Origin: a virus
Direction: 5' to 3' (one strand)
DNA: 64,000 nt
IMG/VR virus record: IMGVR_UViG_3300032334_000315
Location: 90,690-154,689 of that record
Below the pieces are notes generated by a model. That model ran no database searches and had not been told where the DNA came from. It was given only the letters and a program-made list of their open reading frames with translations. A program made the translations under genes and the position numbers. Position 1 is the stretch's first letter; the number at the start of each line of letters is the position of its first letter. Below, piece after piece: positions 50,892 through 56,931 of this stretch.

Positions 50892-50903
50892 TATTTATAA
50901 ATA
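50892..50903. promoter_or_regulatory. Bidirectional late promoter palindrome TATTTATAAATA
   Basis: Exact TATAAATA on both strands between divergent genes. Confidence 0.75.
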
Positions 50904-50921: not shown

Positions 50922-51203
50922 ATGGATCAATGGTTCAAATTAGTTGCTGAAGTTGGCTTCCCTATCGCGGCTGCGTGTGCGGGTGGCTATTTCGTATTCC
51001 TCACAATGAAGTTCATTCTAGCAGGTGTTATGTCCAGTGTCAAGGGACTATCTGGCATCATCACCGCGCTGGACAATCGAGTAAAGACAATGAACCACGA
51101 TGTTATTCGTATTGACACGCTGGTTTCTAATGCTCTTGGTGTGAAGCCAGATGTGGATCGTATCGCAAGAGCTGATGGTAAGAATGATGCAAGGAGAGAC
51201 TGA
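50922..51203 (+). CDS. Small membrane protein (YvrJ-like GFPI motif)
   Basis: VGFPIAAACAGGYFVF TM helix followed by a coiled coil; AAGGAG RBS. Confidence 0.65.
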   Translation: MDQWFKLVAEVGFPIAAACAGGYFVFLTMKFILAGVMSSVKGLSGIITALDNRVKTMNHDVIRIDTLVSNALGVKPDVDRIARADGKNDARRD

Positions 51204-51643
51204 TGGACGGTATTGCTGATCTGATAAACAAATATGGCTTTCCTATTGTCGCAGCTGGTGGCATGGGCTACATGATTTATTATGTGTGGACATGGGCCAC
51301 AAAAGAAATCAAACCTGTTACAAGCGAAGCGTCTACCGTTCTCATTGCTTTGATTGACCGCATTCGTATGCTCGACAACGACCTTATTCGTTTGAACCAG
51401 AAAATCAATATTGTTCTTCAGTTGCGTGGTAAAGAGATTGAATCCGAGCGCCACTTGCATGACGTTGAGACGGCAGCTAAAGCACAAGCTCGTGAACTAG
51501 AAGCTGCGGACAAACAGGTCAAAGCTGCTGAAGAACTAGCAGCCAAGCATCATAACAATGCTGTCGAAGTAAATGGTAGGCCCGTAGCGAACCCAGAGCA
51601 AAATACCAAGCAAGAGCCAAACCAGAAAAATAAGAAAGTATAA
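51203..51643 (+). CDS. Small membrane protein, paralogue of 50922-51203
   Basis: YGFPIVAAGGMGYMIY...ALIDRIRMLDNDLIRL aligns with ALDNRVKTMNHDVIRI. Confidence 0.65.
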   Translation: MDGIADLINKYGFPIVAAGGMGYMIYYVWTWATKEIKPVTSEASTVLIALIDRIRMLDNDLIRLNQKINIVLQLRGKEIESERHLHDVETAAKAQARELEAADKQVKAAEELAAKHHNNAVEVNGRPVANPEQNTKQEPNQKNKKV

Positions 51644-51647
51644 TATC

Positions 51648-53705
51648 TTACTTGCTGTTGGTACGGAATACGCCATCCCAATCCTTAGGTAGAGGATTCT
51701 TTTTATAGTCCTCCACGCGCTCTTTCATCATTTCATAATACTCTCTTAGATCACCACCAAATGCCGATTCGAGTACGTGGAAATAATTTTCAAGTCTGTC
51801 CCATTCCTGTGCGCGATAGTATTTGATGAAGTCTGCGTGTGTGCGAGCATACGCCTTATTGATACCAATCTTTTCAACGATGGTGTATATCTTCACACCT
51901 TCGCTCTTACCCTTCACAGCAAGGCAATCAAGTTCCACACATAGATATTCATCCTTCACATATTCATAAGTCTTAGGACCAATGACCATCTTCACATGAT
52001 ATGGCTTGCTCTGCCCTTCCAGGCGCGAGGCTAGATTGACAGTATCACCGAGGCAAGTATAATCAAAACGTTGGTTACTACCCATATTGCCAACCACAAC
52101 GGAGCCTGTGTTAATCCCAAGACCCATACCAAAGGGTGGAACACCCTCAGTGGCGATCTCTTTGTTAAATCGTTCCAAATCACCTAACATCTCCAGTGCT
52201 GTTTTAACTGCATGTAATGCATGGTCTGCGTCATCAAGTGGCGCATTCCAGAATGCCATCTGCGCGTCACCGATATACTTATCTAGTGTGCCATCGTTCT
52301 GAATTATCTTAGCTGTCATCGCTGTCATGTAGCGATTCATTATTTTCGTAAGGCCCTGTACGTCATTACCGTAATGTTCAGAGATAGTCGTAAAGCCCCT
52401 AACGTCAGTAAACATGATAGATAGCTCACGGGTCTCTCCTCCCAAGCACAATAGTTCTGGATTCTTTTGTAGTTTCTCGACTAGTGCAGGTGAAAGGTAA
52501 GTACCGAACTGCTTTTTGATTTGTTGCTTTAGTCTAAACTCGCGAGCGAAATTGTTGAATACCAAGTGCCCATATACAACAGTTATAGCCAATACGATAT
52601 AGCTTGCATCCCATAGCTGTAACTCTGTTTTGAATAAATAATAACTCGCTGCTGATACTCCAACCACAATGAAAGCGTAGAATGGAACCGTTAACGCTAC
52701 CGTCAGTCTTGGAACTATATGGAGCAATAGTAGTAGCATGGTGGTTAGTAGTGCTCCTTCTATTAGCCTTCCTACGTTGGGGCGAGAAATAGAAGTTCCG
52801 TCTACCAGTGTTTGGAGTGTCTGCGCCTGAATCTCATGGGCCCACTTCTCACCGATTGGTGTTGCTATGATACCACCAACACCTTCAATCGTTAGACCAA
52901 GAATAACAATCTTGTCCTTCACGCGAGCATCTATCTCGGTTGCTTCTAGCGTATCAAACTTGGTATTCCAAGTCAACCAGATACGACCTCTTTCATCGGT
53001 TGAGATTGGTGGAAAAGCTGGGACTCTTACAGCCTCTATTCCACCTTCGTTCGTCTTAACTTGAAAGCTAGGGTCTCCAGCAGCGACACGAATGGTCTCC
53101 AAAGGAATGCTAGGATAAAGACCAGATGCAATATTGACAAGTAGAGGCATACGGCGAACCACACCGTCCAATTCAGAGATTGTTGCGACCACACCAACGC
53201 CTGAGGCAACTTCGGCATACTGGTCAAGAGGGCGTAATCCACCAGGCCAACGATAGACAACCCTAGCAGGATCAACAGGACCGATAGCAGCGAACCCACG
53301 ACGAACCGAGTCAGGCTTACTGTTTTGAGTAGTAGGGGTTTGAGCGAGGACAACACCTTCAAGAGTTTTTGCCAGTTCATCATCGCCTCCTGCTCTATCT
53401 TTCTCAGAGAATAGAATAGGCGCAACGATTACCGAAGCGCCGTTCTCTTTTAGTTTATTGATTGTCTTTGCGATATCTCTGCGGTCAAATGGCCACTGAC
53501 CAAACTTCTCGACCGACTTCTCACCAAAGTTAACAATTACAATCTCTTCTGATTGTTTCTTCTCCAGAGAAGTTATGAAGAGGTCGAACGTATTCAATTG
53601 TAGCTTTTGTATTGGACTGGGATTGACCACATACAATGTCAACAGGAGACAGGCGCTGATGGCAACCATCCATGTGCTTGTAAGAAACTTGACTAGCTTT
53701 TCCAT
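51648..53705 (-). CDS. CHASE2-domain class III adenylate cyclase
   Basis: N-terminal TM; CHASE2 motifs GQWPFDR, DGVVRRMPL, KDKIVILG; TM helices; cyclase motifs MFTDVRGFT, LDKYIGDA, GINTG..VVGNMGS, DYTCLGDTVNLASRLEG. Confidence 0.93.
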   Translation of the reverse strand: MEKLVKFLTSTWMVAISACLLLTLYVVNPSPIQKLQLNTFDLFITSLEKKQSEEIVIVNFGEKSVEKFGQWPFDRRDIAKTINKLKENGASVIVAPILFSEKDRAGGDDELAKTLEGVVLAQTPTTQNSKPDSVRRGFAAIGPVDPARVVYRWPGGLRPLDQYAEVASGVGVVATISELDGVVRRMPLLVNIASGLYPSIPLETIRVAAGDPSFQVKTNEGGIEAVRVPAFPPISTDERGRIWLTWNTKFDTLEATEIDARVKDKIVILGLTIEGVGGIIATPIGEKWAHEIQAQTLQTLVDGTSISRPNVGRLIEGALLTTMLLLLLHIVPRLTVALTVPFYAFIVVGVSAASYYLFKTELQLWDASYIVLAITVVYGHLVFNNFAREFRLKQQIKKQFGTYLSPALVEKLQKNPELLCLGGETRELSIMFTDVRGFTTISEHYGNDVQGLTKIMNRYMTAMTAKIIQNDGTLDKYIGDAQMAFWNAPLDDADHALHAVKTALEMLGDLERFNKEIATEGVPPFGMGLGINTGSVVVGNMGSNQRFDYTCLGDTVNLASRLEGQSKPYHVKMVIGPKTYEYVKDEYLCVELDCLAVKGKSEGVKIYTIVEKIGINKAYARTHADFIKYYRAQEWDRLENYFHVLESAFGGDLREYYEMMKERVEDYKKNPLPKDWDGVFRTNSK

Positions 53706-53968
53706 CAGTATTGGCTAACGATATAAGGGCTATTGGGACAATTGAGACCACAAGTAACACTAAGACTAAAAGACTGAGGCGTGTTTCCAGATTGAGATAC
53801 AATAGCCGAGATATTATTGCCAGTGAAATTAAGGGTAGCACTATGATTAGCACCAGACTGAGTAATACTAACATTCTGTAAGGATCCTATGATGTTCACG
53901 GTTGCATTGTTCACTGTCTGCGATAGCGCAGGCGTTGTCATTAGAAGGAGCGCGATTAAAGTTTTCAT
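53705..53968 (-). CDS. Small secreted curlin-like protein
   Basis: Signal peptide then NVSITQSG / AIVSQSG beta-repeats and a C-terminal CGLNC. Confidence 0.6.
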   Translation of the reverse strand: MKTLIALLLMTTPALSQTVNNATVNIIGSLQNVSITQSGANHSATLNFTGNNISAIVSQSGNTPQSFSLSVTCGLNCPNSPYIVSQY

Positions 53969-55077
53969 CAGTTGCCCTGCTTTATAGTTATCGTTGTGGT
54001 TCCAGCACTGTTTACCATCTGCGTCACTGAACCACCATCCTGAGTCAGATTCAATGTCATGTTATGCGTAGTTGCTACCGTTAGTTCCATATATGAGTTA
54101 TACGATTCGCGGTAGAGTACGACGTTATCCTGTTCAACAAAATACTTTAGGCCTGTTGAAGCATTATATTTAGGTAGTAACGCATTGAACTCCGCAAGCT
54201 CGTTAGTTAACATCTGTGAACTGGATAGGTCTAGAAAGTTCATTAAAAAATCACTATCAAGAAAGTTCTTATCTAGTTTGTTATACTCTGTAAGGTAGTT
54301 CTTTTCAAGTTCGCTGTATTTGAGAAAATCAATGCCAAGTAAATCTGCGTCTAGTACGTTTGCGATACGCTCAACTGGTTGCTCACGCACAACAGGTTTT
54401 GCTGGTGCTACGATAAGCATATTATTTATCTGATCCAAATTCAAGTTCATAATGCTGGATTTTGGTGTACTGATACTGGTCTGCACATTGACAGTCTCAA
54501 ATGGTTTGGTTAACCAGATAGTGCCCATATCCGTAGTAACAGATATGGAACCAACCACGCAGTCGCGTTCAATATTTCGCCAACCAGTAGGGCAAGAAGG
54601 AAGCAAAATAATAGTAGAACGACCAATCTCATCGACGGTACCTGAGAAATCAGTTCCGCGGACACCGATTGTTGCTGTTGGTGTTTCCACCATGACTTGT
54701 TGCGGATCTGATTTAGCAATTTGCCCGGATGCATATTTGATAGTGCCGAGCGCCATCTTGATGCCAAGCTTGCCAGTTTTCTTTTCACCGTCGTAAACAA
54801 AATTGTCAATGACAAGGCGGCTGTGCTCCGTTATCTGAACTTTCGTATCATCTTGGAATGTGATACCAGTTTTGCCATTCGCAGTCGTGATGGTATCTTT
54901 CATCTCAACGCCACTAGCTAGTGTGCTGGAAATCAAGTTAGCATCACGCTTTATTTCTGCTGGGCCTGTTTGCTCTGTGACCTTACCAACTTCACCTTTA
55001 CTGGTGGTTGGACTTAATAAGAAGAGTATTGCCAGAACCAGTGATTGTAGAAATGACCTTAGAGTCAACACCGCCAC
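53968..55077 (-). CDS. FecR-domain exported protein
   Basis: DTITT...ITFQDDT.V.I.EHS.L.ID, VETPTATIGVRGTDF; C-terminal TITIKQGN. Confidence 0.85.
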   Translation of the reverse strand: MAVLTLRSFLQSLVLAILFLLSPTTSKGEVGKVTEQTGPAEIKRDANLISSTLASGVEMKDTITTANGKTGITFQDDTKVQITEHSRLVIDNFVYDGEKKTGKLGIKMALGTIKYASGQIAKSDPQQVMVETPTATIGVRGTDFSGTVDEIGRSTIILLPSCPTGWRNIERDCVVGSISVTTDMGTIWLTKPFETVNVQTSISTPKSSIMNLNLDQINNMLIVAPAKPVVREQPVERIANVLDADLLGIDFLKYSELEKNYLTEYNKLDKNFLDSDFLMNFLDLSSSQMLTNELAEFNALLPKYNASTGLKYFVEQDNVVLYRESYNSYMELTVATTHNMTLNLTQDGGSVTQMVNSAGTTTITIKQGN

Positions 55078-55675
55078 CTTGCTTTATATCTACAGTGTTT
55101 GTTGCACCTAAGATATTCACATCGGCTTCATGACCATTCGTAGATGCTACGCCTGTCTGAATGATGTTGACACTATTGCCACCACCACCGTCAATTAGAA
55201 CCGTACTCTTCGCACCCGCGACTGCGCTGGAATCATTCTCTATGTTTACGGTGTTGTTGTCTGTGTTTACCGTCACGTTGGATATCGTGAACCCCTCGGC
55301 CTTCTGCGTGATGGTATTGTTATCGCCTGTGATGGTGTTATTTAATGTTGAGCCAGTACATGTGCCACTGACACCGCATTGCATGTTGATGGTGTTGTTA
55401 TCACCAGTAACGAGTGAAGACGCGGTTACGCCATCGCCCTGAACATTGATGCTCATAAGGTTGGTGTTACCGATCTGGTCGATAGTGACAGTATTATTCT
55501 GCCCGTTGAATATTGCTTTGTCGGTAGAATTTCCAATCACGTTCGAATTGCCAGTCTGAGTCATAGAAATTGTAGAACCACTACCGATTTGGTCTACATA
55601 CACACTATTGCTCGCGGCGTTTGCATATTGAAGCATAACCAAGAATGACAAAAATGCCAGTCTTGTACGTTTCAT
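54998..55675 (-). CDS. Curlin-like (CsgA/CsgB-type) repeat protein
   Basis: Signal peptide; roughly 11-residue N-x-h-x-h-x-Q-x-G units (NSVYVDQIG, NTVTIDQIG, NSVNIIQTG, NTVDIKQGG). Confidence 0.75.
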   Translation of the reverse strand: MKRTRLAFLSFLVMLQYANAASNSVYVDQIGSGSTISMTQTGNSNVIGNSTDKAIFNGQNNTVTIDQIGNTNLMSINVQGDGVTASSLVTGDNNTINMQCGVSGTCTGSTLNNTITGDNNTITQKAEGFTISNVTVNTDNNTVNIENDSSAVAGAKSTVLIDGGGGNSVNIIQTGVASTNGHEADVNILGATNTVDIKQGGGVDSKVISTITGSGNTLLIKSNHQ

Positions 55676-55680
55676 TTTGT

Positions 55681-56484
55681 TTACCTCTTCTTGATACTCC
55701 AGAGCTTCTTTTTGGCTCCCTCTTTTATCATATCGACCACTGCGGCTTCTATTGCTATTCTAACTGCATATGTTGTAGGTTCATTCGCTGCTGTCCCAGC
55801 TTCAAACTCGACAGACCTCGTACCTGCATCAACAAACTTAAACACATTCGCACCTGCGCTGGTGCTTAGAATAGTCTTAGATGATCCAGTGGACAACAGG
55901 ACTTCACCTGTGTTTATGGATATCAAACGCAGAACCACCGTGACTTCATCCTTACGGTACTCTTGGTTGGCTCCAACGCCAAGGAATCGTGCGCCAATAC
56001 CACCAGTGCCAATGTTTGAATCAAAGCCAACAATACCACCATCAATCATAATGCCTGCGACGGTTAGTGGTGTAAGCGGCTTTGCCTGATCCTTTTCGTA
56101 TAGCTCACGTTGGCTACGAATGAGCTGGCGTTCCTTCACCAGGTTCTCAAGCGAGGCCCGCTCTACCACTTGAAACCACCGACCTCTACCGGCGTCCTGG
56201 AGAGCTTTTATGAGGAATACCTCTGCACCCTGCGTGACTGCGGAACTCAAGCTGGCAAAGTTGGTAGCCGGCTTGCGTTGACCAGTCATATCCGGGAAGC
56301 GGTAGACGGCAATCGGAATTACCGGACCATCCACACCTCTCATATTAGCCAACTCATTGAACCGCTTGTTCATAATAATCTCTGGTGCGTCCGCTACCTC
56401 TTCAATCACATCCTTTGACATAAGCGTTGGCTGGCAACCAGCTACCAACAAACACGCAAGAACCATACCAAAAATCTTTACCAT
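55681..56484 (-). CDS. csgG: Curli secretion channel lipoprotein CsgG
   Basis: Lipobox VAGC; IAVYRFPDMTGQRKP, SSAVTQGA..FLIKAL, WFQVVER..LENLVKERQLIRS, NEPT..AVR.AIEAAV. Confidence 0.93.
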   Translation of the reverse strand: MVKIFGMVLACLLVAGCQPTLMSKDVIEEVADAPEIIMNKRFNELANMRGVDGPVIPIAVYRFPDMTGQRKPATNFASLSSAVTQGAEVFLIKALQDAGRGRWFQVVERASLENLVKERQLIRSQRELYEKDQAKPLTPLTVAGIMIDGGIVGFDSNIGTGGIGARFLGVGANQEYRKDEVTVVLRLISINTGEVLLSTGSSKTILSTSAGANVFKFVDAGTRSVEFEAGTAANEPTTYAVRIAIEAAVVDMIKEGAKKKLWSIKKR

Positions 56485-56918
56485 GCTAAACTCCCGTAGG
56501 GAACCACAACCTCTGTGACGCTACCAGCTGCGTCGGTTATTCGTAATGTAATCTGAGAACCATCCGATGACCATTGGACATTGTTGGTTGCTATGCTAAA
56601 TGTGCCAGATGTGGCGCCGTTGTCGGAGAACAGTTGCTCGGCTATCTTCTGCGAGAGTGTAGCATATACGCGGCTCTCGAGGTTATTGATAAACTTCGCA
56701 AGGTTCGTATTCTTAGCATCCGATGCAGCCTTAGCTGCGGCTGCTACCTTGTCGTCCATGATCTTTTGGCGTCGTGTCTGTTCCAGATTCTCAATGGTTA
56801 GCACATGCGAAGAAAAGCCCACACCTGAGAAGGCGGGGCTTTTAAAATTGAACTGAAGTTCAGTCGCATATAGTGGCATTGCTACCACACATAACAAAGC
56901 TACTAGAAGCTTTCTCAT
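56478..56918 (-). CDS. csgF: Curli assembly protein CsgF
   Basis: Signal peptide then ELQFNFKSPAFSG...HVLTIEN, FINNLESRVYA.LS, ITD..G..TEVVVP; adjacent to csgG. Confidence 0.85.
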   Translation of the reverse strand: MRKLLVALLCVVAMPLYATELQFNFKSPAFSGVGFSSHVLTIENLEQTRRQKIMDDKVAAAAKAASDAKNTNLAKFINNLESRVYATLSQKIAEQLFSDNGATSGTFSIATNNVQWSSDGSQITLRITDAAGSVTEVVVPYGSLAW

Positions 56919-56923
56919 GCACC

Positions 56924-56931
56924 TATTTATA
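56924..56931 (-). promoter_or_regulatory. T4-type late promoter for the csgF operon
   Basis: Exact TATAAATA ending 5 nt before the csgF ATG. Confidence 0.75.

Follow-up and report, generated by a model that had tools for sequence, protein, structure and literature searches.

The window analysed here is a 64,000-nucleotide stretch that forms the last 64 kb of the 154.7-kb IMG/VR virus record IMGVR_UViG_3300032334_000315, and its subject is a block of six genes that joins curli-type secretion proteins to a FecR-domain protein and a CHASE2 adenylate cyclase. All six genes lie on the minus strand. A csgF homologue comes first (146 amino acids (aa), 56478..56918; Pfam CsgF, E 1e-18) and is followed by a csgG homologue (267 aa, 55681..56484; Pfam CsgG, E 1.7e-52, 178 bits), by Cur1, a curlin-repeat subunit resembling CsgA and CsgB (225 aa, 54998..55675; Curlin_rpt, E 3e-5), by the FecR-domain protein (369 aa, 53968..55077; Pfam FecR, E 1.7e-10), by Cur2, a mini-curlin (87 aa, 53705..53968; Curlin_rpt, E 1e-4), and by a protein that combines CHASE2 with a class III adenylate cyclase domain (685 aa, 51648..53705; Pfam CHASE2, E 3.2e-40, and Guanylate_cyc, E 7.4e-22). 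The genes are tightly packed, where csgF and csgG overlap by 7 nucleotides (nt), csgG and Cur1 are separated by 5 nt, Cur1 and FecR overlap by 80 nt, and the FecR/Cur2 and Cur2/cyclase junctions each overlap by 1 nt. The FecR gene begins with GTG, and its signal peptide is encoded across the end of the Cur1 gene. Signal peptides are found on CsgF, Cur1, FecR and Cur2, a lipobox on CsgG, and transmembrane (TM) helices in the cyclase. A first-pass annotation made from the sequence had described six abutting or overlapping genes in this order, with export signals or TM helices on every product; the open reading frames (ORFs), Pfam matches and export signals agree with it on both points.

A T4-type late-promoter motif, TATAAATA, heads the csgF operon (56924..56931, minus strand; motif search). 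Eight copies of the motif occur in the window against 3.9 expected, and all eight lie just 5' of gene starts when we compare their coordinates with the listed ORFs. The same box precedes csgF in three relatives (L004, L020 and L022). The first-pass annotation had called this an exact T4 late promoter, and both the box and its conserved position bear that out; the promoter is less straightforward than the name implies, as the box overlaps the stop codon of thyX (ATA TAA) and the csgF ATG lies only 5 nt past its end. With the box so near the ATG, a T4-type start would fall on the A of the start codon and give a leaderless mRNA, unlike L020 and L022, where csgF has an ordinary leader of ~22 nt with GGAG. 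Given this overlap and the leaderless start, read-through from thyX is an alternative source of transcription for the operon.

The window carries a T4-like gene set that includes baseplate genes, a gp32-like single-stranded DNA-binding protein, PhoH and ThyX, and the record itself is estimated to be 93% complete. The closest cultured relatives of the source phage are Pelagibacter phage HTVC008M and Methylophilales phage Melnitz, T4-like myophages that both carry the six genes in unchanged order next to thyX (HTVC008M gp014-gp019, NC_020484; Melnitz genes 99-104, MZ577097). CsgF, CsgG, FecR and the cyclase are 37-49% identical to their counterparts in these two phages, the curlin-repeat proteins 31-35%. 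A csgF/csgG operon was reported by Zaragoza-Solas 2020 (PMC7029224), and Wittmers 2022 (PMC9599517) described CsgF, CsgG, CsgA/B, FecR, CsgA/B and adenylate cyclase in SAR11 myophages and podophages as an ocean-wide cassette of likely alphaproteobacterial origin, with metatranscriptome matches for their phages and with viral curli proteins at ~0.1% of assembled viral proteins in ocean virome data. As in that viral region, csgF, csgG and curlin genes are adjacent here in a phage genome, the order continues from curlin to FecR, second curlin and cyclase, and the CsgE gate is absent (no match to PF10627 in the 154.7-kb record). The block is almost certainly a member of the published type VIII secretion system (T8SS)/curli region of aquatic T4-like and podo-type phages. 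The first-pass annotation had named only csgF and csgG homologues from SAR11 myophages; those are indeed known, but the whole six-gene cassette was already in print (PMC9599517). Compared with the pelagiphage region, the window differs in its freshwater source, in its G+C content of ~43%, and in the inversion of a pair of small membrane-protein genes, mp1 and mp2, to the far end. Freshwater or lake metagenomes account for all listed DNA holders of the stretch, and the search of sequencing runs listed DNA runs only, with no RNA run among them. The pelagiphage papers also differ from our account in that CHASE2 is not named there and FecR is taken as an iron regulator.

Curli secretion proteins

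Inspection of CsgG reveals an alignment with E. coli CsgG (3x2r, E 7e-48) over residues 7-265, a lipobox, LVAGC, with its cysteine at position 17, and the sequence PATNF opposite the E. coli constriction-loop motif PASNF, where the N-F pair is kept by our reading of the alignment. The PF03783 profile match, lipoprotein signal and constriction-loop motif together describe a predicted subunit of an outer-membrane pore. The CsgF match spans positions 6-132 of the 132-position Pfam profile. A phmmer search of PDB sequences with the phage CsgF did not retrieve E. coli CsgF, and the family is found by the Pfam profile alone.

Both Cur1 and Cur2 score above the Curlin_rpt cut-off. The AlphaFold2 (AF2) model of Cur1 has a predicted local distance difference test (pLDDT) score of 84 and depicts ~17 short strands in regular strand-turn-strand repeats with a period of ~11 residues. 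Among 48,161 chains compared by the VIA wide search, its best structural match was Pontibacter CsgA (8c50, Z 19.4, 198 residues aligned, root-mean-square deviation 8.6), followed by an unrelated solenoid at Z 16.9; a Foldseek search of the PDB with the same model gave no match below E 1e-3. With their repeats and secretion signals, and with a CsgA-like beta-solenoid in the Cur1 model, the two proteins are predicted amyloid subunits. Cur2 is kept in relatives, although its size is highly variable and reaches 453 aa in L024. The spacer between FecR and the cyclase ranges from ~0.3 kb to ~5 kb in six relatives (L233, L245, L274, L292, L196 and L174), which marks the Cur2 position as a hot spot for expansion or insertion.

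Each of the three proteins Cur1 (C100/C106), Cur2 (C73/C77) and FecR (C162/C173) contains one closely spaced cysteine pair. The pair is invariant among the aligned phage FecR homologues and nearly invariant in Cur1, and these pairs suggest periplasmic disulfides.

Relative to the E. coli curli system (CsgA/B/E/F/G), the likeness thus lies in CsgG and its lipobox, in the full-length CsgF profile match, and in the structural match of Cur1 to CsgA. In contrast, the phage curlins are very divergent and bear the conserved cysteine pair, Cur2 is a mere 87 aa, CsgE was not found in the record, and the genes stand behind a late promoter of the phage, in hosts whose lineage may have no curli. No match to CsgC, CsgH or CsgD appeared among the proteins scanned, although no search was aimed at them.

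These features bear directly on the proposal of Buchholz 2022 (PMC9004378) that the Melnitz curli pore has a pinholin- or secretin-like role. In that case CsgG, with or without CsgF, would be reused as a channel that times lysis or permeabilises the cell, and no fibre would form. The late-promoter motif, the lack of a CsgE gate in the phage genome, the presence of small membrane proteins (mp1 and mp2) as neighbours, and the absence of clumping among Melnitz-infected cells (PMC9004378) all suit such a channel. Its lipobox, however, is expected to place CsgG in the outer rather than the inner membrane, two secreted curlin-repeat substrates are conserved under purifying selection, and a lysis channel leaves no role for FecR or the cyclase. 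Melnitz was said to be without csgA and csgB (PMC9004378), contrary to its GenBank record, which annotates two curlin-repeat proteins. Because its lipobox directs CsgG to the outer membrane and the substrates it would secrete are conserved, we regard the lysis-channel proposal as one of the weaker accounts and as improbable for this locus.

The FecR-domain protein and the CHASE2 cyclase

The hydrophobic segments of the cyclase describe one TM helix, a periplasmic CHASE2 domain (Pfam match across residues 21-325), three further TM helices and a cytoplasmic cyclase domain. The N-terminal TM helix, periplasmic CHASE2, three TM helices and output domain are those of a CHASE2 sensor protein, as predicted from the sequence, and 32 homologues from phages and bacteria all keep the CHASE2 signatures GQWP, R75 and DR...D. 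The closest structure to the cyclase domain is that of Pseudomonas aeruginosa CyaB (3r5g, E 4.9e-32). Residues D434, K476, D480 and R561 are invariant in the same 32 homologues, and the phage protein contains the motif GDTVNLASRLE. The catalytic roles of these residues are assigned from what is established for CyaB and CyaC. Read in this way, the protein has the two metal-binding aspartates, the substrate lysine with its accompanying Thr/Ser, and the transition-state asparagine and arginine of a class III adenylate cyclase, such that catalysis is predicted, and our reading of the substrate residues would make it class IIIb-like. The identification of CHASE2 as the sensor domain of the cyclase is new relative to published accounts of the cassette.

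The AF2 model of the FecR protein depicts a signal peptide, a FecR fold at residues ~30-210, a low-confidence acidic linker at residues 225-302, and a small C-terminal beta domain. Foldseek matched residues ~30-210 to the C-terminal cell-surface signalling domain of PupR (6ovk, E 6e-5, target-normalised template modelling score 0.50), and the model also matches BDI_1681. A signal peptide is present in all FecR homologues examined, and neither an anti-sigma domain nor an inner-membrane anchor was seen in the sequence or model. The likeness to FecR/PupR cell-surface signalling anti-sigma regulators is therefore confined to the periplasmic fold; the phage protein differs in lacking the cytoplasmic anti-sigma domain and TM anchor and is soluble and exported. 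That is to say, it shares a common fold with the anti-sigma regulators of FecI/FecR/FecA systems and is not a member of that class. One further idea, that the FecR C-terminus might form a curlin-like strand, is not supported: hhalign against the curlin profile returned a probability of 0.3, and residues 300-369 had no Curlin_rpt match in Pfam.

The fold and its name nevertheless invite a reading in terms of iron. Raised in Wittmers 2022 (PMC9599517), it holds that an ungated CsgG would import cofactors or siderophores while FecR acted as a ferric-citrate-type regulator. The missing CsgE gate would fit an open import channel, and the Pfam family is indeed named FecR, but the protein consists of a signal peptide and a periplasmic fold with no anti-sigma domain or inner-membrane anchor seen, and no match to the FecI or FecA families was found among the scanned ORFs adjoining the cassette, the rest of the genome not having been searched. 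Bacterial FecR relatives, moreover, pair with CHASE2 proteins and not with TonB-dependent transducers. Because the phage FecR keeps only the fold of a regulator, the iron reading is also among the weaker ones, and we consider it very improbable.

Bacterial genomes offer a different context for a secreted FecR-domain protein. The FecR alignment was scanned against 185,579 species genomes and yielded 80 loci, which comprise eight with the full cassette together with mp1/mp2, two in Caulobacteraceae and 70 with the FecR domain only. Among these 70, a CHASE2 protein lies nearby in 32, at a median distance of 1.5 kb, and 29 of the 32 have a cyclase domain; 48 encode a TPR protein that shows weak signatures of a Slam-like barrel, and all three occur together in 29. 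None of the 70 contains CsgG or CsgF. The secreted FecR protein with a CHASE2 cyclase, usually joined by a Slam-like TPR outer-membrane protein, is on this genomic evidence a widespread predicted bacterial module. Published examples point the same way. In Sinorhizobium meliloti, the FecR-domain protein SMc02177 adjoins cyaD1 (PMC5498481), and the outer-membrane barrel NsrA feeds the CHASE2 cyclases CyaK, CyaD1 and CyaD2 in a pathway that leads on to Clr (PMC7529298, PMC13001267). Genes for a CHASE2 cyclase, phosphodiesterase, FecR and TPR proteins are clustered in Campylobacterota (PMC9239204), and the Burkholderia biofilm operon BiofilmReg encodes a LysM-FecR protein and a CHASE2 histidine kinase (PMC5192318). 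As secreted FecR-domain proteins adjoin CHASE2 cyclases in bacteria, the phage FecR is better viewed as a signalling partner than as an iron regulator.

The phage and bacterial arrangements share a secreted FecR beside a CHASE2 protein, with only Cur2 between them in the phage, as well as the full-length architecture of the cyclase (27-35% identity) and the build of FecR, where the bacterial partners also consist of signal peptide, FecR domain, disordered linker and C-terminal domain. They differ in the length of FecR (517-661 aa in bacteria versus 369 aa in the phage) and in the protein that takes the outer-membrane position, which is CsgG/CsgF in the phage and a Slam-like TPR/beta-barrel protein, with no curli genes, in bacteria. 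A tblastn search with three Slam-like TPR queries found no match in L025-L034, the loci from genome assemblies that bear the cassette, the window and IMG/VR loci lying outside that search. Modelling the periplasmic part of CHASE2 (residues 29-312) in complex with the FecR domain (residues 28-235) returned values of 0.01 and 0.00 for the interface score ipSAE.

Conservation, accompanying genes and origin

Linkage of the six genes was the subject of a synteny survey that the first-pass annotation had put forward as a check. The gene order is kept in all 21 IMG/VR loci found via FecR, as far as the contigs reach. A search with CsgG alone added 78 loci, 50 of which extend at least 3 kb downstream, and FecR is present in every one of these 50. 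Inversion or relocation of the cyclase gene (L275, L277, L294, L298 and L301) does not take it out of the cluster, nor do insertions of up to ~5 kb that separate it from its neighbours. Linkage thus holds in ~120 viral loci, rearrangements included, and IMG/VR contains at least 590 relatives each for CsgG and mp1. Wherever dS was not saturated, namely for the cyclase, FecR, both curlins and a single CsgG pair, ratios of nonsynonymous to synonymous substitution rates (dN/dS) against four relatives were 0.04-0.24; CsgF and the remaining CsgG pairs combined saturated dS with low dN. We read these values as purifying selection on all six genes. Divergence is also mosaic: between the window and L021, dN rose from 0.12 in the cyclase to 0.28 in FecR and 0.45 in Cur1, with L017 also compared, and this pattern suggests recombination between cassette parts.

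Two IMG/VR contigs, L024:2031-16550 and L023:83-11518, contain divergent cassettes in which FecR is ~43% identical. Both contigs carry heme oxygenase and ferredoxin-dependent bilin reductase genes, and L023 has a DnaK-like gene recognised by eye from its translation rather than by a scan; these extra genes resemble auxiliary genes of the cyanophage type. CsgG has 408 aa and the second curlin 453 aa in L024, and genes for an LpxH-like metallophosphoesterase, a RimK ATP-grasp protein and a GT4 glycosyltransferase stand between that curlin and the cyclase. The metallophosphoesterase was considered as a cyclic AMP (cAMP) phosphodiesterase and set aside, as it looks LpxH-like instead. The phage record from which the window comes has three Metallophos matches of its own.

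Two further genes travel with the six. In the window, mp1 (93 aa, 50922..51203, plus strand) and its paralogue mp2 (146 aa, 51203..51643, plus strand) both encode small membrane proteins of phrog_18771, and mp2 ends 4 nt from the stop of the cyclase gene, to which it is convergent. A second copy of TATAAATA (50896..50903, plus strand) lies 19 nt upstream of the mp1 start. In both proteins a GFPI membrane helix leads into a second, conserved helix, and the protein atlas returned viral hypothetical proteins only, with a weak YvrJ lead at 0.84. In most relatives, HTVC008M (gp011 and gp012) and Melnitz (genes 97 and 98) included, the pair stands directly upstream of csgF, whereas in the window it is inverted at the far end of the cassette. 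Podophages in Wittmers 2022 (PMC9599517) have 'HK, sometimes two' before csgF, at the place that mp1/mp2 occupy in relatives. Neither mp1 nor mp2 matches a Pfam family or has a kinase domain, and the HATPase_c and cNMP_binding profiles found no match in the phage record.

The association of this pair with the cassette is close. Among 50,697 phage records, mp1 homologues are confined to six full-genome records, the same six that have CsgG, and a search of IMG/VR with mp1 alone found the cassette adjoining in 74 of 80 loci, the other six ending at a contig edge. Since mp1 and mp2 always accompany the cassette, the inherited unit comprises eight genes. An [AT]ATAAATAG motif lies ahead of mp1 in relatives that begin with this gene, and TATAAATA lies ahead of csgF in those that begin with csgF; each predicted transcription unit of the eight-gene block is thereby headed by a late-promoter-like box.

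The eight cassette-bearing loci from the scan of species genomes (L025-L031 and L034) have both the full cassette and mp1/mp2, and the metagenome-assembled genomes (MAGs) in which they lie are labelled Flavobacteriaceae, Pelagibacter, Legionellales, Rhodobacteraceae, Pirellulales and Luteolibacter. Because these labels are discordant, the loci are probably mis-binned phage contigs, and the labels do not name hosts. The two Caulobacteraceae MAG loci (L033:4809-12118 and L032:6052-12109) encode CsgF, CsgG, two curlins, FecR and a CHASE2 cyclase without mp1/mp2. Housekeeping genes for an amidohydrolase, acyl-CoA dehydrogenase, DsbA and methylmalonyl-CoA mutase flank the block in L033, where a gene for an SpdA/CpdA-like phosphodiesterase lies just upstream of csgF. 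These two loci are a chromosomal bacterial version of the whole six-gene block. Wittmers 2022 (PMC9599517) states that the viral block is absent from bacterial T8SS operons. The L032 cyclase groups with phage cyclases in a quick tree with long branches, with full support of 100 in the Shimodaira-Hasegawa-like approximate likelihood ratio test (SH-aLRT) and a trichotomy inside the clade, and the Caulobacteraceae cassette may represent either a source lineage or a recipient. FecR-domain matches were found in 122 of 400 sampled genomes of that class (Alphaproteobacteria by MAG title); among the matches listed, none beyond the source genome was a full cassette-type FecR protein.

The cassette is a composite of a minimal curli secretion system (CsgG, CsgF and two curlins, with no CsgE) and a FecR/CHASE2 cyclase signalling pair, and both halves were probably captured together from an alphaproteobacterium. 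A composite raises the question of whether its halves work together. The main rival to a coupled device is that two independent modules moved as one block, where curli fibres would serve aggregation, 'sibling capture' or a superinfection shield, and the FecR/CHASE2 cyclase would separately raise cAMP and reprogramme host metabolism. Bacterial FecR-CHASE2 pairs do exist without CsgG or CsgF, curli systems normally lack FecR and cyclase, podophage cassettes are often without the cyclase and second curlin (PMC9599517), and gene-to-gene divergence differs within one phage pair in a way that suggests recombination between the parts. Yet a curlin gene stands between FecR and the cyclase, neither inversions nor insertions have broken up the cluster across ~120 loci, a bacterial family has it as well, and FecR accompanies the T8SS in all 50 viral loci that reach far enough. 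We judge independent modules somewhat unlikely, although they deserve serious weight.

A possible link from surface fibres to cAMP

Coupling of the two halves would proceed as follows. The cassette genes would be transcribed from late promoters and their products exported through the Sec and Lol systems of the host. CsgG and CsgF would assemble an outer-membrane channel through which Cur1 and Cur2 are secreted as amyloid-like surface fibres. FecR, with its folded domain, long flexible linker and small C-terminal domain, would span the periplasm as an adaptor between the outer-membrane or curli side and CHASE2, and the cytoplasmic cyclase would adjust its cAMP output to the condition of the envelope or fibre. 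Late in infection, this cAMP would act on host effectors. A bridging role for FecR fits the presence of FecR in every viral cassette, the frequent lack of the cyclase in podophages (PMC9599517), and the pairing of FecR with CHASE2 in bacteria.

The first-pass annotation had proposed such a trans-envelope sensing system, and the idea is plausible. Protein identities and export signals, synteny, purifying selection, the conserved position of the late-promoter motif, intact catalytic residues, the bacterial FecR-CHASE2 pairing and the NsrA precedent (PMC7529298) speak for it. Its more specific suggestions, that the system senses contact, superinfection or host density and tunes lysis timing, find no support here. 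We hold the coupled mechanism, in which a curli system, FecR adaptor and CHASE2 cyclase report envelope or fibre state as cAMP, tentatively and with somewhat less than even confidence. A more specific version, in which FecR tethers the curli pore or fibre to the cyclase, mp1 and mp2 act as inner-membrane accessories, the infected cell reads cell contact, fibre load or secretion stress as late cAMP, and a T8SS has replaced the Slam-like outer-membrane input of a widespread bacterial CHASE2 pathway, is a speculative and on balance unlikely extension.

Several observations weigh against coupling. Contact of FecR with CHASE2, CsgG, CsgF or the curlins is shown by no experiment or computation, and SMc02177, the FecR-domain protein beside cyaD1, is dispensable for plant-signal perception in S. 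meliloti (PMC5498481). The phage record encodes no cNMP-binding protein that our profile detects, which leaves the target of cAMP missing. Bacterial FecR-CHASE2 pairs without a T8SS, and curli systems without FecR or cyclase, mean that the halves could act separately. The csgF promoter box lies over the thyX stop and leaves no leader, and Melnitz-infected cells did not clump in the work of Buchholz 2022 (PMC9004378).

What is new here is the link between CHASE2, FecR and a TPR-barrel protein, the chromosomal Caulobacteraceae version of the block, the obligatory mp1/mp2 pair and a freshwater member. For the window itself the practical outcome is modest: it adds one more intact freshwater member and helps to define the eight-gene unit and its likely bacterial source. 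The cassette is nonetheless very common in aquatic phages, where it equips hosts without curli with a surface structure and a second-messenger enzyme. If its parts are coupled, it would be the first phage-borne surface-to-cytoplasm sensor and would open the ligands and partners of CHASE2 receptors in bacteria, and the logic behind them, to experiment.

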